A stretch of DNA of 41,671 bases, taken from the IMG/VR virus record IMGVR_UViG_3300037391_000121; one strand, 5' to 3'. Each line of letters opens with the position of its first letter. Position 1 is the stretch's first letter. Shown here one piece after another: positions 4,150 through 41,671 of the stretch. Position numbers and translations under genes: made by a program. Under the pieces are notes generated by a model. The model was not told the DNA's origin. It was given only the letters and a program-made list of their open reading frames with translations, and did not search any database. The DNA is from a virus (Duplodnaviria > Heunggongvirae > Uroviricota > Caudoviricetes).

Positions 4150-4176
4150 CCAAAAACACGATCTCGATGGTAGAAT
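4146..4176 (+). promoter_or_regulatory. phage promoter, CTA(G/T)C(C/T)-N19-TAnnAT class
   Basis: CTAGCC 4146-4151, GG then TAGAAT 4171-4176. Confidence 0.65.
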
Positions 4177-9747: not shown

Positions 9748-10404
9748 GAAGGTTCATCGGGAAGTTCATCTACGGCACCCGCTGGATACTGTTCCCGATC
9801 AACGTCGGGCTATTGGCGGTACTGGCGATGTACGTGGTCGCGTTCCTCGTGAACGATTACCGCTTCATCGTGCATGAGTTCACGTGGGACATGGAATCCC
9901 TGATGGTGCTGCTCCTCGGCTTCGTGGATGCGGCAATGGTCGCCAATTTGATTATCATGATCGTACAGGGCGGGCACCAGATTTTCATCCACAAGTTCGA
10001 GCTACCTGAGAAAGATGAACGAGCACAGTGGCTCGACCATATCGACTCTGGGCTGCTCAAGGTCAAAACCGCACAATCGATTGCGGGCATCACCCTGATT
10101 CAGATTTTGAAGGATTTTGTCAACATCGAGAAGGTGCAGTGGATTCTGGTCGAGCATCGCATGATTATCCATGTCATAGCGTTGGTTTCGGCGTGCATCC
10201 CTTCCCCGCTCTCCGTCAAGTGGCCCGATGTGTTTCCAGCCAAAGAGGGATACACCAAGATTCGCCTGAGTTTCCTGACGGATGACCCCAAGCATATCCG
10301 CTCCCTGATGTTGCAGCAAATCTACAACGTCAAGCCGCCGTTCGTTGAGGATGGCCGCGATTTGGCGAGTCACACACCCAACACAGGAGAAAGAACATGC
10401 ATAA
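9744..10404 (+). pseudogene. YqhA / UPF0114-family membrane protein interrupted by an out-of-frame 164-bp duplication
   Basis: RWILFPINVGL, LLGFVDAAMVANLIIMI, WLDHIDSGLLKVK are UPF0114-like; the native tail MAAIWRVTHPTQEKEHA* resumes at 10351 in another frame and its stop overlaps the next start. Confidence 0.75.
10190..10353 (+). repeat. 164-bp perfect direct repeat, copy 2
   Basis: identical to 3819..3982. Confidence 0.95.
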
Positions 10405-10954
10405 ACAACGCGGACAAGCGAATGGAGTCGTGGTTGTCCTTGTAGCGGTCGCCATCGTGCTCATTATCGCCGCCATTTCTCTCAGCCACAGCGATAAAAA
10501 GTCTCACCGAACACACGGTCATCGCACCGTCGTCAAGGGCGAATTCCTCACGCCCACACAGGACGGTCGCGGTCGCTACGCCTACCAAAACGACGGCGGC
10601 GACTGGTACATCTACTACTGGATGATGACCAGCAACAACTCCTATTCGTATTCCGCCCCTCCTCCGTTGACGGGCTATGCACTGCCGAGCGGTGGGCAGT
10701 GGACGAAAGTTACGGATGAGCCAGACGAGGACGAGGTTATTGAACAGGAAAATGAACCTGTCATTGAGAACGACAGTAACGTCCCTGAGACCGAAGCTGA
10801 ATGGCAGACCGAGAACCAGACCGACATCGAGAACCAGTCCGTGGAGCCCGAGAATACCACCGAGCCATCGGCTGAGCCCTCGACACCATCCGATTCCAGC
10901 CCCTCTGATTCGGGTTCGGACTCTGGCGACAGCGGCGGGGATAGCTCTGACTAA
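10397..10954 (+). CDS. membrane-anchored protein with acidic Ser/Asp/Gly low-complexity tail
   Basis: N-terminal TM, YIYYWMM, tail SDSGSDSGDSGGDSSD. Confidence 0.8.
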   Translation: MHKQRGQANGVVVVLVAVAIVLIIAAISLSHSDKKSHRTHGHRTVVKGEFLTPTQDGRGRYAYQNDGGDWYIYYWMMTSNNSYSYSAPPPLTGYALPSGGQWTKVTDEPDEDEVIEQENEPVIENDSNVPETEAEWQTENQTDIENQSVEPENTTEPSAEPSTPSDSSPSDSGSDSGDSGGDSSD

Positions 10955-11356
10955 ATGGCGTCCTTCGAAGAGCATTGCCGAGACTGTGAACGGCTACTTG
11001 GACAACGTTTCGAGAACGTCAACCATTGGCTGGACGAAATGTTCCGTAAGTACGGGCCGTTGCACCGCTTCGCTCGACACCATTGGCGGGGCGTTGACGA
11101 GTGCGGGCACATGTGGGGTAACGCGGCCCGCAAAGCTGCCATCATTCATATCCTGAAAGATTGCGGTTGGGTTCCGAGTGCCCGTGATTGGGCAGAGCAG
11201 AAGGTTGATGCTCTCGGGTTTAAGATCAACAGACCTTACGGCACCGATCCAACTGCCGAACTGGTTAGTGCGTTAGGTTTCAGCGACGTGTTCAACGGCT
11301 ACTGGGACCCGAAAGAATTTGTTGCGAAAGCAAAAGAATTGATCGACGCCGACTAA
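10955..11356 (+). CDS. His-rich conserved phage protein (DUF6915-like)
   Basis: EEH...VNHWLDE...HRFARHH...AAIIHILKD pattern. Confidence 0.5.
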   Translation: MASFEEHCRDCERLLGQRFENVNHWLDEMFRKYGPLHRFARHHWRGVDECGHMWGNAARKAAIIHILKDCGWVPSARDWAEQKVDALGFKINRPYGTDPTAELVSALGFSDVFNGYWDPKEFVAKAKELIDAD

Positions 11357-11376
11357 TTCCTTCGGTATTAAGTTGT

Positions 11377-12024
11377 ATGAGCGCACCGCAAGACGTAAAC
11401 TTCAAGAAAACTGCCGCCAACGAAACCGTATACACCACTGGAGCCCAACGCGATAGTCGTTCGGGCAAGGGAGCCTTCCACTGGATGCCTTGGGATGCCG
11501 TGTTTTGCGTCTCCAACATTTACGAGCTAGGCAACAAAGGACGCAGCAAGACAGGGGATGGCAACGACCGTAATTGGGAAAACGGTATGCCTCTCATCGA
11601 CTTCCTCCACAGTGCGTTGAACCACATCACCGCCCATATCTCGGGCGACCGCAGTGAGCCGCACATCTCTCAGGCGATCTGGAACCTCCTGAACTACCTC
11701 CAGACTTCGATCTGGGTCATCCTCGGCACCCGCCCGAAAGAACTCAACAAGCTGCCGAATCATCGAGGCAACTGGAAGCCGGGAGATGAACCGCCTTCCC
11801 CGCTGTCCCCTCGGGAAATTGAATGGCTGACGTTCAAGGGCGTACTTCCCAAGCCGACCGAGGATAAAGAGACCATAACCGTACCCAAGTCGGTGACCAT
11901 CACGCCACTCATAGATGTCGAGGCTCTCAAGCAGCTTGCCCGCCCTGTTGATCCTGCCCCGAACCCTGCTGGTGGGACTCCGAAAGTAAAACCATTCGTC
12001 GAAGACGAGGATGAACCGCTCTAA
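11377..12024 (+). CDS. dATP/dGTP diphosphohydrolase-domain protein (DUF5664)
   Basis: GAQRD...GKG.FHWMP, RNWENGM, SALNH, EPHISQAIWNL. Confidence 0.8.
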   Translation: MSAPQDVNFKKTAANETVYTTGAQRDSRSGKGAFHWMPWDAVFCVSNIYELGNKGRSKTGDGNDRNWENGMPLIDFLHSALNHITAHISGDRSEPHISQAIWNLLNYLQTSIWVILGTRPKELNKLPNHRGNWKPGDEPPSPLSPREIEWLTFKGVLPKPTEDKETITVPKSVTITPLIDVEALKQLARPVDPAPNPAGGTPKVKPFVEDEDEPL

Positions 12025-14005: not shown

Positions 14006-14292
14006 AAGTCCTGTATCGCGGGTTCAATATCGACGTGGAGAAAGCGAAGAGTATGGCTGGCTACAAGCTGACCTACTATTCCGTTTTCCGTAAGTCGGAC
14101 GGCTACGAGATGACGAGCGGGTACTGCGACGACAATGACACCGTTCGGACGTGGATCAAGATGATGAAAGAGCGGGTGGACGGATTTATCGACGACCCAA
14201 GCGAAGAGATGCATGAGACGCCAGACGACGAGGAATACTACGACGTGCTGGCGGGACATCGGCTGGAGAATCAGAAAACACAGGCGTTATGA
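14002..14292 (+). CDS. hypothetical protein
   Basis: ATGA coupling at 14002. Confidence 0.7.
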   Translation: MKVLYRGFNIDVEKAKSMAGYKLTYYSVFRKSDGYEMTSGYCDDNDTVRTWIKMMKERVDGFIDDPSEEMHETPDDEEYYDVLAGHRLENQKTQAL

Positions 14293-14723
14293 AAACTGCT
14301 ACCGCGAAACGTTACGTGTGCGAGCGTACAGGACAATCGTTCGAGTACGAGGAAATGGCCCGTGCCTCGGAAAACAAAATCTCCGAAGCCGCGTTTGCCG
14401 ATCTCAAGCGCAAGATTAAGAGCGGCAAGTTTTGGGTGCCGAAGGTTGGCGAGTGGATTTATGTCCGCACCATGATGAGCATCGACCACGGTGAGGATGA
14501 CGTTCAAGGTGGTCTCGCGATGGTCACTCGCGTGTACGACAGCATGAGCGGTGGTGATCCGAAGTGCAAGTTCGTCGAGATCGCTCAGCATGATCGTGGC
14601 GGCAACTGGACGCAGTTTCTCTTCCCAGAGCAGAAGGAACTGATGAAGCGGCACGGCAAAGAGTTTGCATGTCCCGATCCAGATTACGGCTACGCTGGTG
14701 ATCCGAATGGGGGCTTCAACTAA
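14289..14723 (+). CDS. hypothetical protein
   Basis: ATGA coupling, 144 aa. Confidence 0.75.
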   Translation: MKTATAKRYVCERTGQSFEYEEMARASENKISEAAFADLKRKIKSGKFWVPKVGEWIYVRTMMSIDHGEDDVQGGLAMVTRVYDSMSGGDPKCKFVEIAQHDRGGNWTQFLFPEQKELMKRHGKEFACPDPDYGYAGDPNGGFN

Positions 14724-23155: not shown

Positions 23156-23186
23156 CTAGCTGTTTTCTGACTTCCCATGGTATTAT
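23156..23186 (+). promoter_or_regulatory. promoter of tRNA-Ser cluster leader
   Basis: CTAGCT-N19-TATTAT with extended TGG; shares CATGGTAnTATATAGAAG with 38719-38736. Confidence 0.8.
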
Positions 23187-23228
23187 ATAGAAGTTGGCTC
23201 ACCGCAAGAAGGTGACCCGGACACACAA

Positions 23229-23303
23229 ATGATCGTTATCAGCATATCATCGTTATCGTCTAGTAGCTCCTCACGGGGCGACGGCATCGGTGTGTGCTTG
23301 TAA
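23229..23303 (+). CDS. Ser-rich attenuator leader peptide (24 aa, MIVISISSLSSSSSSRGDGIGVCL)
   Basis: 9 Ser codons using all six Ser triplets plus ATA and TTA, between a promoter and a terminator. Confidence 0.8.
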   Translation: MIVISISSLSSSSSSRGDGIGVCL

Positions 23304-23342
23304 GTATCTGAAAACAAGCAGATTAGATTCACCGAGCAGCCG
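23282..23342 (+). promoter_or_regulatory. antiterminator hairpin of leader 1
   Basis: TGCTTGT/ACAAGCA, TCGGTG/CACCGA and CGGC/GCCG; the last pairing takes the left arm of the terminator. Confidence 0.7.
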
Positions 23343-23370
23343 CCAAAACTAGGGCGGCTTTTGTGTTTTT
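23338..23370 (+). terminator. intrinsic terminator (attenuator) before tRNA-Ser genes
   Basis: AGCCGCC-aaaactag-GGCGGCT followed by TTTGTGTTTTT. Confidence 0.85.
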
Positions 23371-23386
23371 GTACGCAAGTTAACAG

Positions 23387-23478
23387 GGTGAGTTGGGCGA
23401 GTGGCTGATGCCGCAGGTTTGCTAAACCTGAGTGCCTCGAAAGGGGCACCGTGGGTTCGAATCCCACACTCACCGCCA
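23387..23478 (+). tRNA. tRNA-Ser(GCT)
   Basis: GGTGAGT/ACTCACC acceptor, CAGGT-TTGCTAA-ACCTG, long V arm, G73, CCA. Confidence 0.95.
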
Positions 23479-23516
23479 TTTTGAGAAGTACGCGGATGGA
23501 TTAGCAACGTCCGTTT

Positions 23517-23606
23517 GGTGAGTTGGGAGAGCGGCTGAATCCGCCACGTTGGAAGCGTGGAGCACCCGCAAGGGTGCCGTGAGTTCGAATCTCACACTCA
23601 CCGCCA
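23517..23606 (+). tRNA. tRNA-Ser(GGA)
   Basis: CCACG-TTGGAAG-CGTGG, long V arm, G73, CCA. Confidence 0.95.
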
Positions 23607-23611
23607 GTTCT

Positions 23612-23705
23612 GGTGGGCTTGGTACATGGGCAAGTCCGCTCGTCTTGAAAACGAGTACGGGGCAGAGATGCTCCGTTGGGAGTTCGACTCTCCCGTCCAC
23701 CGCCA
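23612..23705 (+). tRNA. tRNA-Ser(TGA)
   Basis: CTCGT-CTTGAAA-ACGAG, long V arm, G73, CCA. Confidence 0.93.
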
Positions 23706-23709
23706 GTTT

Positions 23710-23804
23710 GGTGAGGTTGGTACATTGGCAAGTCCGCTCGCCTCGAAAGCGAGTCGCGGGGCTAACCGCCTCGCGTGCAGGTTCAACTCCTGTCCTCACC
23801 GCCA
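23710..23804 (+). tRNA. tRNA-Ser(CGA)
   Basis: CTCGC-CTCGAAA-GCGAG, long V arm, G73, CCA. Confidence 0.93.
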
Positions 23805-23900
23805 GTTTGACTCACGTGCCTAATGTGTGCCGATGTTTGGCCTCGTGACCCGCGAGGGATATGAGAAGCAGAAGTCAAAGTTTTCGTGGTATTATTGGGT

Positions 23901-24209
23901 ATGAAGTCTTACGAACCATGCGTCGAAGACGCCACGGCCCATATCCACGTTGATTGGAAGACACACGAGAGCACGGGGAAATTTGCCCCGTACCCGAAAA
24001 TATTTTGTAGTGTGTGCCCGCCGTCAACGACAGCGGAAAGTGAAGAGGAGTACCGCAAGTACGTGGCATACGAGAAGCGAGAAGCTTTGAAGTACGCTAC
24101 GCGGAGACCGAGCCAATCGCTTCGTCTTCGGCTGTACCGTCACCGCATTTTGATTATGTGCGGATTTCTGGTCGCAGCGTATTGCGTACTCCATTGGATT
24201 TTGCGGTAG
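23901..24209 (+). CDS. hypothetical protein with C-terminal TM
   Basis: ATG 5 nt after TGGTATTAT (leaderless-type). Confidence 0.7.
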   Translation: MKSYEPCVEDATAHIHVDWKTHESTGKFAPYPKIFCSVCPPSTTAESEEEYRKYVAYEKREALKYATRRPSQSLRLRLYRHRILIMCGFLVAAYCVLHWILR

Positions 24210-24211
24210 AC

Positions 24212-24289
24212 GCCCGAGTGATGCAACTGGCAGACATTTCCCACTTAAAACGGGAATTTTTGGGAGTTCGAATCTCCTCTCGGGCACCA
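24212..24289 (+). tRNA. tRNA-Leu(TAA), short variable loop
   Basis: GCCCGAG/CTCGGGC, loop CTTAAAA, T arm GGGAG-TTCGAAT-CTCCT, A73, CCA. Confidence 0.85.
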
Positions 24290-24294
24290 AGTTT

Positions 24295-24388
24295 AGAGGG
24301 TAGCATTGGTGTGCGGGTGGGCCTTATAAACCTGCAATCGCGGCTGATTACCGTACTCGGACGGGTTCGATTCCCGTACCCTCTACCA
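24295..24388 (+). tRNA. atypical tRNA with TAT anticodon (nominal Ile), long V arm, minimal D arm
   Basis: AGAGGGT/ACCCTCT, loop CTTATAA, 25-nt variable region, T arm, A73, CCA. Confidence 0.7.
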
Positions 24389-24418
24389 TATTTCCCCGCC
24401 CCGTGGTATTATCCTAGT

Positions 24419-24763
24419 ATGGATGAATTAAAACTTCCCGAGGGTGAACTGACGTTTGCCGAGCCGCAAGTCTTCCTGATTCAAATCAGCAACAACTCCG
24501 AGCCGCTGGTTAGCCTCAAGATGGACGGTACAATCGAGTATGGGCCGAACTACACGCCCGACGAAGCTGCTCGCGTCTTTTGGGAAGCCCTCGGCATTTT
24601 GCCAAGAAATACTAGGGAGATTCGAGAGAAGGTCGAACTGCTGGACCTAGATTTCAAACGCCTAGATTTCAAACGCCTAGAATCGAAATACGGTAAAGAG
24701 GGGTATACGGAGTGGATGGACGTTCGCGAAACCATTGATGAACTCAAGGCGCTGGTGAAATGA
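24419..24763 (+). CDS. hypothetical protein
   Basis: ATG 6 nt after TGGTATTAT. Confidence 0.7.
   Translation: MDELKLPEGELTFAEPQVFLIQISNNSEPLVSLKMDGTIEYGPNYTPDEAARVFWEALGILPRNTREIREKVELLDLDFKRLDFKRLESKYGKEGYTEWMDVRETIDELKALVK
24646..24681 (+). repeat. 15-bp tandem repeat (2.4 copies)
   Basis: CCTAGATTTCAAACG x2 + CCTAGA, encoding LDFKR LDFKR LE. Confidence 0.85.
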
Positions 24764-34753: not shown

Positions 34754-34924
34754 ATGGCGTGGAAGACTTTCACCCTCTTTGAACCGCACTCGGACGGAGC
34801 CGCCTACAGTGGGAGGCCCATCGAAGAACAACTCGATCAAATCGAGGCGAATGACTACGAAATTCGCTTTGTGTTCAAGGAGTCGGCGAGGTATACTGTA
34901 CTGGCAAGACGTAAGGCACACTAA
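34754..34924 (+). CDS. small hypothetical protein (56 aa)
   Basis: AAGGA SD; TAATG coupling to next gene. Confidence 0.6.
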   Translation: MAWKTFTLFEPHSDGAAYSGRPIEEQLDQIEANDYEIRFVFKESARYTVLARRKAH

Positions 34925-35865
34925 TGACCATTTTCGAACAATTGAAGGCCAACAAGTTCCCCTACGCGAACAATCTGATCCACCTATTCAGGGGTGGGTC
35001 TGATCTCCATGGGGCGCAGCTTGTGAACAAGCACGATGACGACTGGTACGGCGTTTACGTTGAGCCGCCAGAGATGGTCATCGGCCTCAAGGATTACCCC
35101 CACTACGTGTGGTCGTCTGCGGGCGACACAAAGCGGAATGTTCCCGGCGATATGGACATCTGCTTTTACTCGCTGCGGAAGTGGGCGAAGCTCGCCTCGG
35201 GCGGGAACCCCACTTGCCTGTCGTACCTTTTCGCCGAGAACACCCTGCCTGTCACCGATCTATGGCAAGAGGTACGGAACATGCGGAAACTCTTCCTGTC
35301 AAAGGCGTGTGCGGAGCAGTTCCGTGGGTTTGCTATGGCCCAGCGTCAGCGGTACATGGGCGAACGCGGGCAGGGCAAGCACGGTCAACGTCCCGAGCTT
35401 GAGGAGAAGTTTGGCTTCGATACCAAGGCTGCCATGCACGTTATGCGGCTCCTCGGCGAGGGGATTGAACTTATGCAGGCTGGTGAGATCACCTACCCCC
35501 GTCCGAACAAGAGTCTGCTGATTGCCGTCCGCGAGGGCAAGTACGATCAGGCATTCCTCAAGGACATGACGGACACCCTGTTTGCCGATCTGGACAGGGC
35601 ACAGCGCGAGTCCGACCTACCCGATGAGGTTGACAGGGAAGCTGTGTCCAAATTCCTGACCAAGTTCTACCTCAAGGTTTGGGGAAGAGACGACTGTGTG
35701 ACCAACCGCATTCTGGCACGAGGGTTGGGACTTGCCTGCCGCTGGATCGCGGGACACCTACGGGCAGATGAGCGGGCGGATGGGCATCCCGCGTGGGAAG
35801 AATGGCGTGACGAGTCTGTCGTCAAGATCGCCATGATCGACATGGCAATGCGAGCGGAGGACTAA
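34924..35865 (+). CDS. DNA polymerase beta superfamily nucleotidyltransferase (RlaP/Nuc-transf-like)
   Basis: GGSDLHG, DDDWYGVY, SLRK...GNP, K.A.H..RLL. Confidence 0.8.
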   Translation: MTIFEQLKANKFPYANNLIHLFRGGSDLHGAQLVNKHDDDWYGVYVEPPEMVIGLKDYPHYVWSSAGDTKRNVPGDMDICFYSLRKWAKLASGGNPTCLSYLFAENTLPVTDLWQEVRNMRKLFLSKACAEQFRGFAMAQRQRYMGERGQGKHGQRPELEEKFGFDTKAAMHVMRLLGEGIELMQAGEITYPRPNKSLLIAVREGKYDQAFLKDMTDTLFADLDRAQRESDLPDEVDREAVSKFLTKFYLKVWGRDDCVTNRILARGLGLACRWIAGHLRADERADGHPAWEEWRDESVVKIAMIDMAMRAED

Positions 35866-35956
35866 TGCCACAAGTACCTTGCACTGGCGAAGGATGTTGG
35901 ATGTGCCTGATGCAAGCCGAAATTGAAGGCTTGACGGCACCATATTGGGGGGCGTA

Positions 35957-36148
35957 ATGGCGTCGATTTGCGGAAATATCGTCATGAACAACGCGGGCTC
36001 GGAGCGGCACTTCGACAGCCGTGAGGATGCGAGCCGAGCGTATGCCCTTCTCTGTGACTATGAGGCGTTCCTAAGCGATCTTGTCAATGACGGCAAGATA
36101 ACCGTTAAAGACCACCAAGCGCATCCGTGGGTGACGACAAAGGAATGA
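35957..36148 (+). CDS. hypothetical protein
   Basis: GGGGG SD, ATG 35957. Confidence 0.55.
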   Translation: MASICGNIVMNNAGSERHFDSREDASRAYALLCDYEAFLSDLVNDGKITVKDHQAHPWVTTKE

Positions 36149-36420
36149 CAGGCGTTTGCGAACTCTGTGACCGTGAGCGAAACGATATCACGGATCACCA
36201 CCTGATCCCCCGCACACTTCACAGCAACAAGCGGGTCAAGGCGGCGTTCCCTAAGGAACTCCTGAAAAAGACCGCCCCGCTGTGCAAGCCGTGCCACAGG
36301 CAGATACACGAGTTCTTTACGGAGAAAGTGCTGGGCTGGCACTACAACACGATTGAGAAATTGAAAGCTCACCCCGAGGTTCAGAAGTGGATCGCGTGGG
36401 TCGGAAAGAAGACGTTCTGA
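36145..36420 (+). CDS. small HNH-family nuclease-like protein
   Basis: CELC..., DHHLIPR, LCKPCH.QIH. Confidence 0.8.
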   Translation: MTGVCELCDRERNDITDHHLIPRTLHSNKRVKAAFPKELLKKTAPLCKPCHRQIHEFFTEKVLGWHYNTIEKLKAHPEVQKWIAWVGKKTF

Positions 36421-36683
36421 TGCCGAGACTTAAAATAGGTACTGGATCATGGCCGTACAAACGGAGATGGCGGGACGGCCCTACTTGGGCTTGGCTTTGC
36501 CGAATACTCGGGCATCAAAAGGAATGGTATCACTGGTATGCCAGTGCTGGAGACCAGCTAGGTACGGCTATTGCGGAGGCGTTGGGTTGGGGGAATGGCC
36601 GAATAAAAGCATACTGGCATCTTCATGGAACTAACTCCGCGAACGGCTTCATCTGTGGCAGGTGCGGAAAGGCTGGCATTTAA
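36420..36683 (+). CDS. hypothetical protein
   Basis: TGATG coupling. Confidence 0.65.
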   Translation: MPRLKIGTGSWPYKRRWRDGPTWAWLCRILGHQKEWYHWYASAGDQLGTAIAEALGWGNGRIKAYWHLHGTNSANGFICGRCGKAGI

Positions 36684-36919
36684 TGGGAACCCTCAATATC
36701 AATTACCGCGATCTCGAAATCCAATTGCTGGTCAACGAAAGACTCAATCAGGCTGTCGAGAACGGCTATGACGAGAGCAAGGATGACCCGAAGCTGGTTG
36801 CTCAGAGCCTAGCGGATGAGGACTCGGACATTGAAAGATTGGTCTGGGATCACTTTGACGGCGACGAGACCATCCTCATCCCCTTCATTGAGGTTTGGCA
36901 GCGAAAGCGGTTGGCATGA
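36683..36919 (+). CDS. hypothetical protein
   Basis: TAATG coupling. Confidence 0.7.
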   Translation: MGTLNINYRDLEIQLLVNERLNQAVENGYDESKDDPKLVAQSLADEDSDIERLVWDHFDGDETILIPFIEVWQRKRLA

Positions 36920-37089
36920 AAAAAGAGGATTTGGTCAGGATCATCAACACCCTACACGCTCTCGTGGAGAAGGTACAAGACGAACGAGACACCTGCCTTA
37001 GCTGCGATCAGGACGAGTCAATGCACGCCGAAGACTGCGAAATGGAATGGCTAGAGGCTGACATCCAAGAAGCGCAGAGTGATGCCTAA
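36916..37089 (+). CDS. hypothetical protein
   Basis: ATGA coupling. Confidence 0.65.
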   Translation: MKKEDLVRIINTLHALVEKVQDERDTCLSCDQDESMHAEDCEMEWLEADIQEAQSDA

Positions 37090-37359
37090 ATGTACAGCGA
37101 TATGATCGGTCGCATTCGGGCTGACGTGCATTACATGCGGCAAGCCATGGATGAGATTCGTGGGGATGGCTTCGGTCGAGCGGGCTACCTCAAGAGTGAG
37201 TTCAAGAAAGCCATCCGCCGCCTAGAGTCCCTCCAAGCCATGCTGGAAGAAGGCCCGCTACCTGAAGCTGCCGAAGATGCCAACCCAAATTGCTGCGGAC
37301 ACGGTATTGAGAATGTGGCGGGTTGCGAGTGTCGTCTCATCGCGAAGGGGTTAAGATAA
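37090..37359 (+). CDS. hypothetical protein
   Basis: 89 aa. Confidence 0.65.
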   Translation: MYSDMIGRIRADVHYMRQAMDEIRGDGFGRAGYLKSEFKKAIRRLESLQAMLEEGPLPEAAEDANPNCCGHGIENVAGCECRLIAKGLR

Positions 37360-37592
37360 TGCAGACTGAAGCAACGTTCACCAGCGACCAACAGTACATC
37401 CATATCACGCAAACGAGGTTCCGCTACTGGCATTTCCCCGAGGGCTGGCGGGTATTGCCGAAGGACGCCGAAGATCGGACGCCAGATCAAGACGTGGTTC
37501 TCAACGATGAGAGATGCTTTAAGATTTTGGTCGATTACTTCAGTCAATGGAGATGGAAATCTGCGGGTGCTGGATACGACGGGAAAGCCTAA
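37359..37592 (+). CDS. hypothetical protein
   Basis: TAATG coupling. Confidence 0.65.
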   Translation: MQTEATFTSDQQYIHITQTRFRYWHFPEGWRVLPKDAEDRTPDQDVVLNDERCFKILVDYFSQWRWKSAGAGYDGKA

Positions 37593-37677
37593 GATCGCTA
37601 ACTAAGAAATCTTCTGGTATTTGATTTCTTTTTCATGTATGCTCCTTTGCAAGTGATCGGCAAAATAGGAAGTGTCT

Positions 37678-38226
37678 ATGACTCCCGGGCGTCGTTTGAA
37701 GTGGCTCAACTGTTCGATCTCTGCTTCTTTTCTTATCCCCGCATACATCCTTGCATCGTTTTTCCATCCGAGTGCTTCAACTTGGATCATTGGGCTGTTC
37801 GGCGGGTTGCTCTGGGCTAACTGGTTCGAATACGCCTATCATCGCTGGTTGGATCACACCCCCGGTCTCCGCTGGGAGAAACTCCACCGCGAGCACCACA
37901 AAGCTCCCCTCGATGAGACCCACGTCAATCTCGGCAGCACGCCCTTCGACACGTTCATGATGTTCGTCGTCAACTGCACGCCAGTCGTTTGCGCGGACAT
38001 CTGGTATCAGACGGGCTTCTCCGCTCCCGTGATAGTCGCTTTTGTCATCTATGTCCTCGTCATGGAAGAGGTTCACTGGCGGGTGCACATGGGCGGTTAC
38101 GTGCCTCAATGGATCAAGACCTACCACCTATCCCACCACGCCATGGGCGATACCCCCACTGGCGGGAAGACCAAATTCAACATTTTTGTTCCCCTCTTTG
38201 ATTGGGTTTTTGGTACAATGGGGTAA
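37678..38226 (+). CDS. fatty acid hydroxylase / sterol desaturase family membrane di-iron enzyme
   Basis: His boxes YHRWLDH, HREHH, HWRVH, HLSHH with four TM segments. Confidence 0.85.
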   Translation: MTPGRRLKWLNCSISASFLIPAYILASFFHPSASTWIIGLFGGLLWANWFEYAYHRWLDHTPGLRWEKLHREHHKAPLDETHVNLGSTPFDTFMMFVVNCTPVVCADIWYQTGFSAPVIVAFVIYVLVMEEVHWRVHMGGYVPQWIKTYHLSHHAMGDTPTGGKTKFNIFVPLFDWVFGTMG

Positions 38227-38696
38227 TGCGGCCTCTACCACCGTTCCACAATAAGGTTGTCATGGAATGCCACGCCAGTCACCCGCTCGGCTCGCGGATT
38301 GCTCGAATCGTGGAGGACATCGACTACCGCCAGCGACCCATCCAATGGATGATCGCCCTCTTCAAGTTCGGCTTCGATGAACCCAAGGACGATGGTCACC
38401 TGTCCACGTATGGTCTGCCGCGATTGCCTGAGGAATACGACTCCTGCCTTGTCCGCCTCCTCGTCAAGGTAGTAGACATCACGAACCCCAACCCCGAGGC
38501 CGACCCCATTACGCTGTTCCTACCAGTGATGACTATCCATCCGAACTTCACCGATGAACAGATCATCCACTTCATTTACACCATGATTCGGAACATGGAG
38601 CAGCACGAACTGGACGAGCATTTCTTCTTCCGAGGCGTCAAGGTTCGGGACCCGCACAAGAACGACTCCCCCGCCGCAGAAAATAAATTTCGCTAA
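38226..38696 (+). CDS. conserved phage hypothetical protein
   Basis: ATG 6 nt after TGGTACAAT; ends EQHELDEHFFFRGVKVRDPH. Confidence 0.75.
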   Translation: MRPLPPFHNKVVMECHASHPLGSRIARIVEDIDYRQRPIQWMIALFKFGFDEPKDDGHLSTYGLPRLPEEYDSCLVRLLVKVVDITNPNPEADPITLFLPVMTIHPNFTDEQIIHFIYTMIRNMEQHELDEHFFFRGVKVRDPHKNDSPAAENKFR

Positions 38697-38698
38697 TC

Positions 38699-38729
38699 CT
38701 ATCCTTTTTTCCGATTTCCATGGTAGTAT
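38699..38729 (+). promoter_or_regulatory. promoter of second tRNA-array leader
   Basis: CTATCC-N19-TAGTAT with extended TGG; near-identical to 23156-23186 region. Confidence 0.8.
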
Positions 38730-38748
38730 ATAGAAGCTGAGGAAAACA

Positions 38749-38871
38749 ATGACTCTGAAAAACGCCAATTCGACCGTAGCGACAGCCCATAAGGGCGTCG
38801 GCGGCAAGCGCCAGCGGAATAATCGCTGGTTCGGCGAGGGTCTGTCCTCGGTAGGAGTGGTCGGAATCTAA
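38749..38871 (+). CDS. attenuator leader peptide (40 aa, MTLKNANSTVATAHKGVGGKRQRNNRWFGEGLSSVGVVGI)
   Basis: TGAGGA SD; run AAG CGC CAG CGG AAT AAT CGC TGG at 38806-38829 matches downstream anticodons. Confidence 0.8.
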   Translation: MTLKNANSTVATAHKGVGGKRQRNNRWFGEGLSSVGVVGI

Positions 38872-38906
38872 GACAAAACTCCAAAACGAGATCATGACCC
38901 AACCGG
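38826..38906 (+). promoter_or_regulatory. antiterminator hairpin of leader 2
   Basis: GGAGT/ACTCC, CTCG/CGAG, GGGTC/GACCC, GGTT/AACC; sequesters the left arm of the terminator. Confidence 0.7.
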
Positions 38907-38926
38907 ACTTAGACGGTTGGGTTTTT
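38896..38926 (+). terminator. intrinsic terminator (attenuator) before tRNA array 2
   Basis: ACCCAACCG-gacttaga-CGGTTGGGT followed by TTTTGCATTTTT. Confidence 0.85.
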
Positions 38927-38947
38927 GCATTTTTAGTGGGTTTTTAC

Positions 38948-39023
38948 AGGGGCATGGTCTAGCGGCGATGATGCCGGTCTCCAAAACCGTGCGGCGGGGG
39001 TTCGAGTCCCTCTGCCCCTGCCA
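38948..39023 (+). tRNA. tRNA-Trp(CCA)
   Basis: AGGGGCA/TGCCCCT, loop CTCCAAA, T arm, CCA. Confidence 0.9.
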
Positions 39024-39061
39024 AATTTAAGTCGCATCGTGGGTGAACCGATGTGCAGAAT

Positions 39062-39140
39062 GTGGCGATGGCAACTCTTGGTACGTTGCACTGGTCTGTG
39101 AAACCAGTTATGGAGGGTTCAAATCCCTCTCGTCACCCCA
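39062..39140 (+). tRNA. tRNA-His(GTG) copy 1, no encoded G-1
   Basis: GTGGCGA/TCGTCAC, C73, loop CTGTGAA; base at -1 (39061) is T. Confidence 0.88.
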
Positions 39141-39153
39141 ATTAGGTAGATGT

Positions 39154-39230
39154 GGTGGTCGTCGTTTAGGGGCTAAGACCTCTGACTGTGAATCAGATGA
39201 TCGTGGGTTCGAATCCCACCGACCACCCCA
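39154..39230 (+). tRNA. tRNA-His(GTG) copy 2, with encoded G-1
   Basis: G-GTGGTCG/CGACCAC-C, loop CTGTGAA, CCA. Confidence 0.92.
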
Positions 39231-39291
39231 AGTTTTAAGGCGAGAGAGCAACGACAGAATGATTGAAGGAGGGGACAAGATATTGAACAGC

Positions 39292-39386
39292 GGGGATGGA
39301 AGCTCGCCCAGCGTGCAGCGGAGAACAGGGTTAGTCGCCCCCTCGGGGCAAGATTGGCCCGAAGTGCACATCGAGCTTCCATCTTC
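39292..39386 (+). ncRNA. candidate rod-shaped ncRNA
   Basis: 15-bp terminal stem, GTGCA/TGCAC, 9-bp stem and GCCCC/GGGGC apical hairpin separated by internal loops. Confidence 0.6.
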
Positions 39387-39399
39387 AAAGGGAGAATTT

Positions 39400-39478
39400 G
39401 CTCGTATAGCTCAGTTGGATTTAGAGCGCATCCCTCCGAAGGATGAGGCCGCAGGTTCGAGTCCTGCTACGAGCACCA
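39400..39478 (+). tRNA. tRNA-Arg(CCG)
   Basis: GCTCGTA/TACGAGC, CATCC-CTCCGAA-GGATG, CCA. Confidence 0.93.
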
Positions 39479-39600
39479 TATCAGCAGTAAGCGGCAGCCC
39501 GCTGGATCATGATTGCCCAGCTTGTGGTTCGCCGAAGGGTGTAAAGTGCAAGTCGGCCACAACGCATTATGACCGCGTGAAGCTGACGAGAATTGATTTT

Positions 39601-39678
39601 GCCTGTGTAGCTCAGTTGGACTAGAGCGTTCCGCTACGAACGGAAAGGTCGGGAGTTCGAATCTCTCCATGGGCACCA
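39601..39678 (+). tRNA. tRNA-Arg(ACG) canonical
   Basis: GCCTGTG/CATGGGC, TTCCG-CTACGAA-CGGAA, CCA. Confidence 0.93.
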
Positions 39679-39685
39679 TTTTAGA

Positions 39686-39751
39686 TTGAGCGAGTAACGT
39701 GGAAGGCAACACCAACCACAGGAGGTTTGGAGACCAAAGCGTCTCGCTCAA
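39686..39751 (+). ncRNA. candidate small multibranch RNA
   Basis: TTGAGCGAG/CTCGCTCAA closing stem with two internal hairpins. Confidence 0.45.
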
Positions 39752-39756
39752 AAAGT

Positions 39757-39857
39757 TTAGGAACGTTGAGGTCGGACTGTAGCTCAATGGTAGAGCACCC
39801 CGGACAGGGGTGATGCGGGTTCGACTCCCGCCAGCCCATACGCCGAAACGTTCTTAG
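39757..39857 (+). ncRNA. tRNA-like RNA with extended acceptor helix and no anticodon loop
   Basis: canonical D arm GCTC-AATGGTA-GAGC and T arm GCGGG-TTCGACT-CCCGC; CCCC-GGACA-GGGG in place of anticodon arm; 11-bp basal stem; no CCA. Confidence 0.6.
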
Positions 39858-39919
39858 GGCAGAGGATAGACAGCGACGGCTGGAACGACGTGAAATCCCT
39901 CAAGCCCTCCGGATATTTT

Positions 39920-39996
39920 GGTCCTATCGGCAACTGGATAGTCACCTGCGCTTCGAACGCGGATCAGTGTAGGTTCGAATCCTACTGGGATCACCA
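39920..39996 (+). tRNA. tRNA-Arg(TCG)
   Basis: GGTCCTA/TGGGATC, loop CTTCGAA, CCA. Confidence 0.88.
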
Positions 39997-40026
39997 GTTT
40001 TGTCAGGTTTTGTTGCAGAAAAACAT

Positions 40027-40113
40027 GCAGGTGTGTCGGCAAATGGACGCCACGGGCGCTACGAACGCCCAGCCCTTCGGGGAATGCAGGTTCGAGTCCT
40101 GTCACCTGTTCCA
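40027..40113 (+). tRNA. atypical tRNA with ACG anticodon (nominal Arg), long V arm
   Basis: GCAGGTG/CACCTGT, GGGCG-CTACGAA-CGCCC, V arm CCC-TTCG-GGG, U73, CCA. Confidence 0.8.
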
Positions 40114-40127
40114 ATTTGAGGGAACTT

Positions 40128-40394
40128 ATGAGTTTGATGGATTGGGCGCAGATTAAGCAGGACGCGCAGTTCGAGTCAGAGCACCCGCATACGCACGAAT
40201 GCGAGAACTGCCATAAACAGTATGAGCACGCGGTGGTTATCACCAGCAAGTATGGGACGCCATGCACTGAGATAAGGAACGGGCATGGGTTCTGTTCCCA
40301 ACTGTGCGAGGATGCGTACCCGAAGCGTGGTTCGACGGTTCACGCAGTGGGTTGTCCCTGCGGGTTCTGTAAGGCAGGTTTTACGAAAGCATAA
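40128..40394 (+). CDS. Cys/His-rich zinc-binding hypothetical protein inside tRNA array
   Basis: GAGGGA SD; CENCH, FCSQLC, CPCGFC. Confidence 0.7.
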   Translation: MSLMDWAQIKQDAQFESEHPHTHECENCHKQYEHAVVITSKYGTPCTEIRNGHGFCSQLCEDAYPKRGSTVHAVGCPCGFCKAGFTKA

Positions 40395-40398
40395 GTTT

Positions 40399-40484
40399 TG
40401 GGATGTAGAGCGTAATGGTAGCGTGCACGACTGTTAATCGTGTGGCGAAAGCCCTTGTAGGTTCGAGTCCTACCGTCCCAGCCA
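40399..40484 (+). tRNA. atypical tRNA with GTT anticodon (nominal Asn), long V arm
   Basis: TGGGATG/CGTCCCA, CACGA-CTGTTAA-TCGTG, V arm GGC-GAAA-GCC, G73, CCA. Confidence 0.8.
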
Positions 40485-40485
40485 G

Positions 40486-40560
40486 TTAGGAGTAGTTTAG
40501 GACAGGGAAAACCACTGCCCGCGTTAGGCGGTGACCTCGGTTCAAATCCGAGCCCCTAAG
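40486..40560 (+). ncRNA. tRNA-like RNA / pseudo-tRNA
   Basis: D and T arms present; 7-bp stem with non-canonical loop CGCGTTA; no CCA. Confidence 0.5.
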
Positions 40561-40575
40561 TTTAGAACAGAGTTT

Positions 40576-40651
40576 TGGGAGTTGGCGCAATTGGTAGCGC
40601 AGGGGATTCTGAATCCCAAGGTTGGAGGTTCGAGCCCTTCACTCCCAGCCA
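40576..40651 (+). tRNA. tRNA-Gln(CTG)
   Basis: TGGGAGT/ACTCCCA, loop TTCTGAA, G73, CCA. Confidence 0.92.
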
Positions 40652-40655
40652 AGAT

Positions 40656-40730
40656 TCACTCGTAGCTCAATGGCAGAGCGTTCGGCTGTTAACCGAAGGG
40701 TTGGGGGTTCGAGTCCCTCCGAGTGAGCCA
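40656..40730 (+). tRNA. tRNA-Asn(GTT) canonical
   Basis: TCACTCG/CGAGTGA, TTCGG-CTGTTAA-CCGAA, G73, CCA. Confidence 0.93.
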
Positions 40731-40731
40731 T

Positions 40732-40923
40732 TTAAGTCTCGACGTGAGGTTTGTCGGGCGGTGGAGGGTCACCATAGAAGCGGTGCTCCTCGTGAAGTGG
40801 GCAGGGGATGTCGGCGTCGAACAGGGATTCGACAGCGACTCGGTAAGTGCAGCCGCATTCGAGGACGGTAAAGAAGCATTCCTCGTCGCCCTCGCGGGCC
40901 GTGTAGGCTCCAGCTTGTTTCAT
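40732..40923 (-). CDS. small Cys/His protein antisense within tRNA array (63 aa)
   Basis: MKQAGAYTAREGDEECFFTVLECGC...CPLH; fills the inter-tRNA gap exactly, C/G-rich third positions. Confidence 0.6.
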   Translation of the reverse strand: MKQAGAYTAREGDEECFFTVLECGCTYRVAVESLFDADIPCPLHEEHRFYGDPPPPDKPHVET

Positions 40924-40954
40924 TACTAATGAATACTGAATTCGATTGAACATT

Positions 40955-41030
40955 GGGTGGTTGGCAGAACCGGATATGCACTCGGCCCTTACCCGAGACG
41001 ACGGGGGTTCGATTCCCTCACCACTCACCA
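40955..41030 (+). tRNA. tRNA-Lys(CTT) variant with C33 and C38
   Basis: GGGTGGT/ACCACTC, CTCGG-CCCTTAC-CCGAG, A73, CCA. Confidence 0.75.
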
Positions 41031-41051
41031 ATTTTTGTGGTATTGTAAGGT

Positions 41052-41480
41052 ATGGGTCAGAAAGAGTGTCAGCGGCGTTGGTACTTGAAGCACAGAAGGA
41101 AACACGTAGCCAACGTCGGTATTCGCAAGGAAGCTCTGAGGCAAGAAAACACTGCCAAAGTGCTAGAGTACAAGAAGTTGCATCCTTGCATTGACTGCGG
41201 TGAAACAGACCCAGACATGTTGACGTTCGATCACGTTCGAGGCAAGAAACGTAAGAGTGTCTCGGAAATGCTTTCGGGCGGCTGTACTTGGGAGTTGATC
41301 GAAGCGGAGATCGCGAAGTGCGAGGTTCGTTGCTGGAACCACCACATGAAACGCACAGCGGTTGAGCGGCGAAAAAAGTTTGGATCGGTAGCTCAATTGG
41401 CAGAGCAGGTGACTCTTAATCATCAGGTTGTCGGTTCGATTCCGACCCGGTTCACCAAGTTCGGGTTAGCTCAAGCTTAG
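41052..41480 (+). CDS. HNH endonuclease
   Basis: CIDCG, LTFDH, IAKCEVRCWNHH; 3' end overlaps tRNA-Lys. Confidence 0.85.
   Translation: MGQKECQRRWYLKHRRKHVANVGIRKEALRQENTAKVLEYKKLHPCIDCGETDPDMLTFDHVRGKKRKSVSEMLSGGCTWELIEAEIAKCEVRCWNHHMKRTAVERRKKFGSVAQLAEQVTLNHQVVGSIPTRFTKFGLAQA
41382..41457 (+). tRNA. tRNA-Lys(CTT) canonical
   Basis: GGATCGG/CCGGTTC, GGTGA-CTCTTAA-TCATC, A73, CCA. Confidence 0.92.
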
Positions 41481-41536
41481 GCAGAGCAGCCGCGCAAGCG
41501 GAAGACTGGCGGGTTCGACTCCCGCCCCCTAAACCA
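41460..41536 (+). ncRNA. tRNA-like RNA with GNRA tetraloop replacing the anticodon loop
   Basis: TAGCTC...GGCAGAGC D arm, CCGC-GCAA-GCGG, T arm GCGGG-TTCGACT-CCCGC, imperfect acceptor, CCA. Confidence 0.6.
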
Positions 41537-41572
41537 ACTTTTAGACCGATAAGAAGGGAGACAACGTGATTT

Positions 41573-41671
41573 ATGGGAATGGCAGACACATTAGTTCTTG
41601 ACCTCTCGAACAGGCCCATCGGGTTTGTGAGTTGGCAGCGTGCCGTCAAGATGTACTGGGAAGACCGTGCT
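41573..41671 (+). CDS. HNH endonuclease N-terminus (truncated by window end)
   Basis: TLVLDLSNRPIGFVSWQRAVKM resembles the VLVLN..Y.P...SW..A N-terminus of HNH proteins. Confidence 0.6.
   Translation, partial: MGMADTLVLDLSNRPIGFVSWQRAVKMYWEDRA

Follow-up and report, generated by a model that had tools for sequence, protein, structure and literature searches.

A predicted multivalent leader-peptide attenuator ahead of a tRNA array in a large uncultured phage

Overview

The 41,671-nucleotide stretch of DNA analysed here (IMG/VR record IMGVR_UViG_3300037391_000121, Caudoviricetes; hereafter the window) comes from a large uncultured phage and carries, from position 38699, a promoter, a short open reading frame (ORF), a set of overlapping RNA hairpins and an array of tRNA genes for Trp, His, Arg, Asn, Gln and Lys (Table 1). 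Judged by its sequence, the element ahead of the array is probably a functional multivalent leader-peptide (ribosome-mediated) transcription attenuator that gates a phage promoter into the tRNA genes. Codons of the leader are those read by the tRNAs encoded downstream, and this correspondence recurs in homologous leaders and in leaders of other types. From this arrangement we infer translation of the ORF, efficient termination and the direction of the switch in vivo.

Leader ORF and control codons

The leader ORF has 40 sense codons, from ATG at 38749 to TAA at 38869-38871, and is preceded by a Shine-Dalgarno sequence, GAGGA (38739-38743), as the initial annotation had proposed. Codons 20-27 read AAG CGC CAG CGG AAT AAT CGC TGG, and the anticodons assigned by ARAGORN and Rfam agree with the earlier statement that these eight consecutive codons (38806-38829) are all read by tRNAs of the downstream array. 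The run had also been described as preceded by CAT AAG; both codons are present, but as codons 14-15 they are not adjacent to the run, four Gly/Val codons intervening. CGA is the only array codon missing in the window leader, which leaves tRNA-Arg(TCG) alone without a leader codon, as had been noted.

The probability of such a run, a calculation suggested with the initial annotation, was obtained from a chance model in which the cognate codon set makes up 0.198 of the codons in 25 ORFs of the window. By simulation with phage codon usage, a run of at least eight cognate codons in a 39-codon ORF has P = 4.8e-5, and none of 5810 40-codon segments of real genes contained a cognate run longer than 4. 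However, CAG CGG and CGC TGG are reverse complements and 38811-38829 is a perfect inverted repeat, so that the run holds about six independent codons and P becomes about 2e-3. The informative part of the codon match is CAT and AAT, which are G:U wobble-read codons used against the preference of the phage: the leaders use CAT for His in 7 of 7 cases and mostly AAT for Asn, whereas the phage prefers CAC (0.66) and AAC (0.72).

Homologous leaders in related phages

Six homologous leaders were compared, that of the window and those of five metagenomic relatives (L096, L001, L005, L002 and L003). Those of L001, L002, L003 and L005 were located through homologues of a 164-residue protein encoded upstream (65-91% identity), and L096 by a promoter-motif scan. 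The promoter core is the same in all relatives, and each has a leader ORF (30-43 codons) and a hairpin with a T-tract, followed by tRNA genes for Trp, His, Arg and others. The leader frame is open in all six, every indel in the rebuilt middle part being a multiple of three; the other two frames contain 1-4 stops.

Every leader has Trp, His, Arg, Asn, Gln and Lys codons, and the variable part of each includes at least one CAT and at least one AAG. The leaders cannot be aligned between the conserved N-terminus and the hairpin, and 31 of the 68 codons there are cognate, the expected fraction being 0.198 (binomial P 1.4e-6, for sequences that are not independent). Past the run, only 0-2 of the 12-15 codons are cognate. 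The leaders of L002 and L003 carry CGA, absent from the window leader, and in L003 nine consecutive cognate codons hold the full complement. The N-terminus (M-T-L/F-x-x-A-N-S) and the C-terminus (V-G-V-V-G-I) of the peptide are conserved among close relatives.

Neither a protein-based search of IMG/VR nor a search with a long promoter pattern returned further homologues, and the matches to a core-codon pattern that were considered as such proved to be chance only. Relatives of the AAA protein of L002 were found without tRNAs, and no second leader occurs within the L002 array.

Other leader types match their own arrays

The window contains a second cassette of this kind ahead of its Ser/Leu array. 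The leader ORF of this Ser cassette (23230-23304) has a run of nine Ser and Leu-TTA codons in which all six Ser codons are used, and a near-identical relative occurs in L006. The promoter scan also matched an unrelated phage contig in IMG/VR (G001, 127,843 bases; matches at loci L131 and L161), where a 36-codon ORF contains a run of eleven Gly/Asp/Glu/Ala/Val/Cys codons and is followed by a terminator. The array behind it encodes tRNAs for Val (three), Gly (four), Ala (three), Asp, Glu (two) and Cys.

These leaders were compared with each array, set B being the codons read by the Trp/His/Arg/Asn/Gln/Lys array and the B leaders being the six homologues. The longest runs in the own array's codons are 9 for the Ser leader, 5-9 for the B leaders and 11 for the G001 leader. 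Across types, the longest run is 1 for the Ser leader in set B, 1-2 for the B leaders among codons of the Ser set, and 1 for the G001 leader in both; the G001 set is much broader, with a background frequency of 0.358, and there the B and Ser leaders reach runs of 3-6. The leader-by-array matrix is diagonal, a long run occurring solely in the codon set of the leader's own array. The correlation of leader codons with array anticodons in related genomes, on which the initial annotation had staked its interpretation, was thus found both in the six homologues and in the matrix.

G001 (L168) carries a second array on the minus strand (10109-11450), with three tRNA-Thr genes, an unassigned tRNA and tRNA-Gln(TTG). 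No leader lies directly upstream of this array; ahead of it stand an HNH endonuclease ORF and another tRNA-like sequence. Ruegeria phage RpAliso, the best DNA match by virtue of its tRNAs, was considered as a cultured example and rejected: a small coding sequence lies ahead of its Ile/Leu/Phe block, with no convincing codon match and no terminator.

Promoter and transcription start

The promoter consists of an upstream box and an extended -10 element, TGGTAGTAT (38721-38729), in a layout (CTAKCC-N16-TGGTAKWAT) that is also found at 4168, 13089, 15115 and 23178 of the window. An 18-nt promoter block has 17 of its 18 positions in common with 23176-23193, a correspondence seen in 0 of 100 shuffles, which bears out the earlier assignment of both cassettes to the same promoter type. 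The promoter core is invariant across the six homologues, and purine-rich counterparts of the Shine-Dalgarno sequence occur in all relatives. Transcription is likely to start near 38736, since leaderless genes of this promoter class have their ATG 6-7 nt past the -10. The 17-25 nt between the T-tract and tRNA-Trp leave no space for a promoter.

The 16-mer TGGTAKTATATAGAAG is a tRNA promoter core in Firmicutes as well (Oscillospiraceae, Clostridia, Megasphaera), where it stands behind TTGACN-N17 and the tRNA begins 8-23 nt later. This suggests that the phage uses a canonical strong extended -10 core, its own upstream box apparently replacing the -35. As a clue to the host, scans of metagenome, viral and genome collections with the promoter 16-mer were of no use, the hits being for the most part tRNA promoters of Firmicutes or matches by chance. 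Extended -10 motifs (TGGTATTGT or TGGTATTAT) also occur right after tRNA 3' ends at 41038-41054, 23887-23903 and 24404-24420, each placing the ATG of a small ORF 5-6 nt past the -10 (at 41052, that of an HNH endonuclease); they are promoters internal to the arrays and probably leaderless.

Terminator, antiterminator and control-codon hairpin

In the predicted intrinsic terminator, 38896-38905 pairs with 38914-38923 (9-10 bp, dG -17.6, z -5.2), and the hairpin is followed by TTTTT GCA TTTTT, 25 nt ahead of tRNA-Trp. It is the best terminator-like site among 20 kb scanned; the runner-up, 23338-23359, occupies the same place ahead of the Ser array. The initial annotation had given it 9 bp (38897-38922) and a U-tract, in good agreement. 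The upstream segment 38830-38905 folds into one extended hairpin (-27.3 kcal/mol, z -2.9), the putative antiterminator, with the helices CGG/CCG, GGGTCTG/CA-GACCC, CTCG/CGAG and GGAGT/ACTCC. Three of these (GGAGT/ACTCC, CTCG/CGAG and GGGTC/GACCC) had already been recognised as pairings overlapping the terminator, and the minimum-free-energy fold recovers them together with the additional CGG/CCG. The antiterminator takes up 7 of the 9 nt of the terminator 5' arm and holds the stop codon in its apical loop.

Equivalent antiterminator folds are present in all six homologues (-26.6 to -29.3 kcal/mol, z -2.0 to -3.0). A terminator hairpin is likewise found in all homologues, with three different stem sequences at the same place, and single changes within the stem keep the pairing (C-G to U-G, G-U to G-C). 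The control codons form a hairpin of their own (38811-38829), the stem of which is invariant in the six homologues and unique in the window. It stops 2 nt short of the antiterminator, does not compete with it and may act as a pause site. The invariance of this hairpin, set against the changing terminator stem, would be explained by a double constraint on both pairing and codon identity.

The 5' end of the transcript, a stretch of 8-10 nt that reads GCTGAGGA in the window, can pair with TCCTCGGT within the antiterminator 5' arm. For this duplex (38736-38743 with 38845-38852), energies from -9.7 to -15.4 kcal/mol are predicted across the six homologues, cognate pairs tending to be the strongest. 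Pairing of the 5' end and Shine-Dalgarno sequence with the antiterminator arm is thus a candidate anti-antiterminator.

Ribosome position and the proposed switch

The effect of ribosome position was modelled sterically, with RNA made up to the terminator 5' arm, the ribosome covering -15 to +12 around the A-site codon, and helices closing around the ribosome disallowed. When helices were allowed to close in this way, the antiterminator reappeared at the stop codon as an artefact, and the steric model was used instead. With the A site at any codon up to CGC or TGG, each of the six B leaders shows sequestration of the terminator arm (0.22-0.97), which drops to 0.01-0.2 once the last codons and the stop are reached, with partial rebounds at some positions in between. 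The Ser and G001 leaders follow the same course. In this model the control run ends exactly at the last ribosome position that would still allow the antiterminator.

The following mechanism may be proposed. Transcription would start near 38736, and a ribosome would load on the 13-nt 5' leader and translate the 40-codon ORF. When charged tRNAs are plentiful for Lys-AAG, Arg-CGN, Gln-CAG, Asn-AAY, His-CAT and Trp-TGG, the ribosome would reach the stop codon (38869); as this lies in the apical loop, a ribosome there would keep the antiterminator arms apart. The terminator (38896-38923 and T-tract) would then form, and transcription would end 25 nt ahead of tRNA-Trp. Slow decoding of any control codon would stall the ribosome at or before TGG (38827-38829), allowing the antiterminator (38832-38905) to fold and sequester the terminator 5' arm, so that RNA polymerase would enter the tRNA genes. 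The output would be more of exactly those tRNAs, which would relieve the stall and amount to negative feedback on decoding capacity.

Extent of control and alternative explanations

Several observations weigh against an attenuator, or limit what may be claimed for it. The homologue set comprises six leaders only, with two close pairs. Six of the eight codons of the run lie within the perfect hairpin 38811-38829 and so are not independent, and the invariance of the hairpin codons could stem from RNA or DNA structure rather than from codon identity. The match had been said to hold at codon level (AAG, CAG, CGG); the codons are indeed cognate, but AAG (0.69) and CAG (0.66) are the synonyms preferred by the phage, so their choice is uninformative and adds little weight. 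Codon 4 of the leader is AAA, which has no Lys-TTT partner in the visible array; the array runs off the window at 41671, and in L002 tRNAs with the anticodons Lys-TTT and Arg-CCT, among others, come next. Terminator strength is a prediction from folding. Equilibrium folding favours the terminator whatever the ribosome mask (P about 0.95 at most positions), and the corresponding partition-function model was set aside as uninformative; any switch must therefore be kinetic, as it is in classical attenuators. RNAalifold, applied to a MAFFT alignment of the antiterminator segments, recovered only GGAGT/ACTCC and, because of indels, missed the outer and middle helices, and the cross-species duplex matrix of antiterminator against terminator arm is not diagonal. 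Formal covariation of the antiterminator is weak, and none is claimed.

Two features within the array bear on how far control would extend. An extended -10 promoter lies at 41038, with an HNH ORF that is leaderless 5 nt behind it, and between tRNA-Asn and tRNA-Lys the array is interrupted by a conserved ORF on the minus strand (40735-40929). This ORF encodes 63 residues with Cys/His motifs, 64% identical to the product of L002:13452-13646 (minus strand), and leader-driven transcripts would cross it in antisense. Since the tRNA-Lys genes lie past the antisense ORF or the internal promoter, control of the whole array is uncertain, and the proposal that loss of any one tRNA induces the entire array is not supported as it was worded. 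AAG is nevertheless kept in every leader.

Control could depend on translation without a terminator/antiterminator switch, ribosome stalling altering Rho access, RNase E/RNase P processing or precursor stability, with the hairpin and T-tract serving as a constitutive partial terminator. The codon match and the conserved frame need translation and no particular read-out, and the equilibrium preference for the terminator and the weak antiterminator covariation also speak for such control. We nevertheless regard it as unlikely, because the six homologues and two other leader types all have a stable antiterminator that overlaps the 5' arm of the terminator, and because the control run ends where a stalled ribosome still permits the antiterminator, a geometry that would then be purposeless. 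It is more doubtful still that the palindrome and hairpins form a binding site for a regulator (a DNA operator or a target of an RNA-binding antiterminator protein) of which the ORF codons are by-products. The inverted repeat CAG CGG ... CGC TGG is indeed perfect, does not vary among the six homologues and occurs nowhere else in the window, but codon enrichment reaches the variable, non-palindromic segment (31 of 68 codons), the frame is kept despite in-frame indels, and the Ser and Gly/Asp/Glu/Ala/Val/Cys leaders match their arrays in the same way without a palindrome. The terminator stem has changed three times and the control-codon stem never, as would be expected if codon identity were constrained too.

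Conservation of both ends of the peptide among close relatives and the presence of internal extended -10 promoters in the arrays would suit a small stand-alone gene whose product is a basic peptide of 40 residues and which has a promoter and a terminator to itself; the tRNAs would then be transcribed from other promoters or through leaky termination, and the agreement of the codons would be coincidental. This appears highly improbable: such a run would arise by chance with P of 5e-5 to 2e-3, each of three unrelated leader peptides matches its own array only, and the middle of the peptide is unalignable while its codon classes are kept. Moreover, the conserved C-terminus coincides with the antiterminator 5' arm, and there is no promoter between the terminator and tRNA-Trp. 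A multivalent attenuator thus remains the reading that we favour.

The tRNA arrays and their neighbourhood

ARAGORN and Rfam identified two plus-strand tRNA arrays in the window, at 23387-24289 and 38948-41457 (Table 1). The second tRNA-Arg(ACG) within 39920-40113 is an ARAGORN call alone. Other genes of the window include those for an NAD-dependent DNA ligase, an RlaP-type nucleotidyltransferase (34924-35865) and HNH endonucleases; no close relative of the window DNA was found in GenBank.

Table 1. Coordinates of the predicted leader elements and tRNA genes in the window, and of comparable promoters
Feature	Position	Strand	Basis
Upstream promoter box CTATCC, 16 nt ahead of the extended -10 TGG	38699-38704	+	Recurrence of layout; kept in relatives
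Extended -10 promoter core TGGTAGTAT plus ATAGAAG	38721-38736	+	Shared block, homologue comparison
Transcript 5' end GCTGAGGA, including the Shine-Dalgarno sequence; candidate anti-antiterminator arm	38736-38743	+	Full-length minimum-free-energy fold
Shine-Dalgarno sequence GAGGA, 5 nt ahead of ATG	38739-38743	+	Read in sequence
Leader ORF, 40 sense codons and TAA	38749-38871	+	Frame open in all six homologues
Outlying control codons CAT AAG, codons 14-15	38788-38793	+	CAT and AAG in the variable part of every homologue
Control-codon run, codons 20-27	38806-38829	+	Match to array anticodons
Control-codon hairpin CCAGCGG/loop/TCGCTGG (possible pause hairpin)	38811-38829	+	-9 to -12.6 kcal/mol
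Predicted antiterminator; 5' arm 38832-38858 inside the ORF, 3' arm 38878-38905	38832-38905	+	Minimum-free-energy fold
TCCTCGGT, partner of the 5' end, overlapping the antiterminator 5' arm	38845-38852	+	Full-length minimum-free-energy fold
Predicted intrinsic terminator hairpin (38896-38923) and T-tracts	38896-38934	+	Folding; counterparts in relatives
tRNA-Trp (CCA)	38948-39023	+	ARAGORN, Rfam
tRNA-His (GTG), two copies	39062-39230	+	ARAGORN, Rfam
tRNA-Arg (CCG)	39400-39478	+	ARAGORN, Rfam
tRNA-Arg (ACG)	39601-39678	+	ARAGORN, Rfam
tRNA-Arg (TCG) and second tRNA-Arg (ACG, long variable arm)	39920-40113	+	ARAGORN; Rfam confirms 39920-39993 only
tRNA-Asn (GTT), long-arm copy	40399-40484	+	ARAGORN, Rfam
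tRNA-Gln (CTG) and tRNA-Asn (GTT)	40576-40730	+	ARAGORN, Rfam
tRNA-Lys (CTT), copy 1, past the antisense ORF	40955-41030	+	ARAGORN, Rfam
tRNA-Lys (CTT), copy 2, past the internal promoter at 41038	41382-41457	+	ARAGORN, Rfam
Ser/Leu array: four tRNA-Ser and tRNA-Leu (TAA)	23387-24289	+	ARAGORN, Rfam
Firmicutes loci with TGGTAKTATATAGAAG	L224, L258, L235, L242, L285, L225, L023, L065		

The arrays also contain several unusual tRNA-like sequences. The gene at 39773-39839 (counterpart in L001, 5386-5453) scores 47 bits with the Rfam tRNA model and is missed or unassignable by ARAGORN, its anticodon stem closing a loop of about 5 nt. The 'tRNA-Thr(CGT)' at 40486-40560, a call of ARAGORN alone, combines G at position 33 with an imperfect acceptor stem, gives no Rfam match even at E 0.1 and has no ARAGORN call at the counterpart site in L001; it is probably not a normal tRNA. 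After the last tRNA-Lys, an element at 41460-41536 has a perfect T arm, a CCA-like end and a short GCAA-capped hairpin in place of the anticodon arm. Both tools leave it uncalled in the window, and its L002 counterpart (14267-14339) is an unassigned tRNA in ARAGORN. A class-II-like tRNA-shaped sequence, also uncalled by the tools, follows tRNA-Leu(TAA) at 24295-24390.

The spacer between tRNA-His and tRNA-Arg(CCG) (39231-39399) has 87% column identity with L001 and L002, above the conservation of the leader, and folds as a long hairpin with a closing stem of 12-13 bp (dG -53 kcal/mol, z -2.0). Compensatory changes are seen in this stem (GGATGG../..CCATC in the window, GGACGG../..CCGTC in L001, and more paired changes in L002). 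No Rfam family matches this structured RNA within the tRNA array.

Gene order upstream of the leader is conserved (window 34924-38696, L001 340-3981, L002 5884-9821) and comprises the RlaP-type nucleotidyltransferase, small ORFs, a fatty-acid-hydroxylase-family protein and the 164-residue protein. L002 and L003 have a BCS1-like AAA ATPase as an insertion ahead of the leader.

Relation to known attenuators and biological significance

The best-known multivalent attenuators are those of enterobacteria, namely the leaders of ilvGMEDA (Ile/Leu/Val) and thr (Thr/Ile). The phage element has the same parts: a promoter, a short ORF led by a Shine-Dalgarno sequence, clustered control codons that cover several amino acids, an antiterminator 5' arm after these codons, a terminator 5' arm common to both folds, and a stop codon so placed that a terminating ribosome would block the antiterminator. 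Unlike these leaders it is phage-encoded, precedes tRNAs rather than enzymes, would monitor six amino acids, and is modular, with at least two cassettes in the window. The hairpin of its control codons is self-contained and stands apart from the antiterminator without competing with it, and the candidate for 'region 1' is the 5' end with the Shine-Dalgarno sequence.

As in trpL, hisL and leuL, ribosome position would be kinetically coupled to alternative RNA folds. In those leaders the 1:2 pause hairpin holds the control codons and competes with 2:3, unlike in the phage leader; the G001 leader has a classical 1:2 hairpin built from its last control codons. The leuL leader uses the less favoured CUA codons for sensitivity, and the phage leader similarly uses CAT and AAT against its own preference. 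The pheM leader of pheST, which senses charging with one amino acid, controls a chromosomal aminoacyl-tRNA synthetase operon by attenuation. It resembles the phage leader in acting on a component of the translation apparatus and not on a biosynthetic pathway; its output is a protein enzyme, whereas that of the phage leader would be tRNA supply itself.

T-box riboswitches also sense tRNA status and choose between terminator and antiterminator ahead of translation-related genes, but no translation is involved: a specifier codon and the T-box sequence bind the uncharged tRNA directly. Neither a T-box nor another cis-regulatory Rfam family matched 38600-41671 at E up to 0.1, or the whole window at gathering score; the Rfam amino-acid operon leaders (Trp, His, Leu, Thr) gave no match, and only tRNA models hit. 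By analogy, the element would work like the ilv, thr, trpL, hisL and leuL leaders while standing outside any curated Rfam family. A full-text literature search, the coverage of which is incomplete so that absence is unproven, found no account of attenuators ahead of tRNA genes or phage tRNA arrays.

The reasons why phages carry tRNA genes have been debated for decades, the main proposals being codon compensation and escape from tRNA-cleaving defences, and tRNAs for Lys, Arg, His and Asn are among known nuclease targets. Phage tRNAs have been presented as a means of escaping host tRNA-targeting defences (PMC10264068, PMC11464382, PMC11555353). The abstracts of these papers supply a rationale for replacing particular lost tRNAs, and contain no mention of a sensor that turns on tRNA genes upon decoding failure.

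Tentatively, large phages might carry a modular surveillance of the tRNA pool, although the evidence so far leaves this less probable than attenuation at the single element. Each sub-array would stand behind a multivalent leader that reports the decoding speed of the codons it serves, with wobble codons for sensitivity, and would provide on-demand replacement of tRNAs that are scarce or cut by anticodon nucleases, acting together with nearby RNA-repair genes such as that of the RlaP-type nucleotidyltransferase. If the leader acts as proposed, the phage gauges how fast its codons are decoded and produces tRNAs accordingly, and classical attenuation, associated with amino-acid operons and one synthetase operon, would extend to tRNA genes themselves. 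The element would then be a compact natural sensor of tRNA availability with six inputs. For annotation, the leader would predict which tRNAs belong to the transcription unit, and, if tRNA-pool surveillance is real, its codons would be a direct read-out of the host tRNA deficits or attacks that the phage expects.

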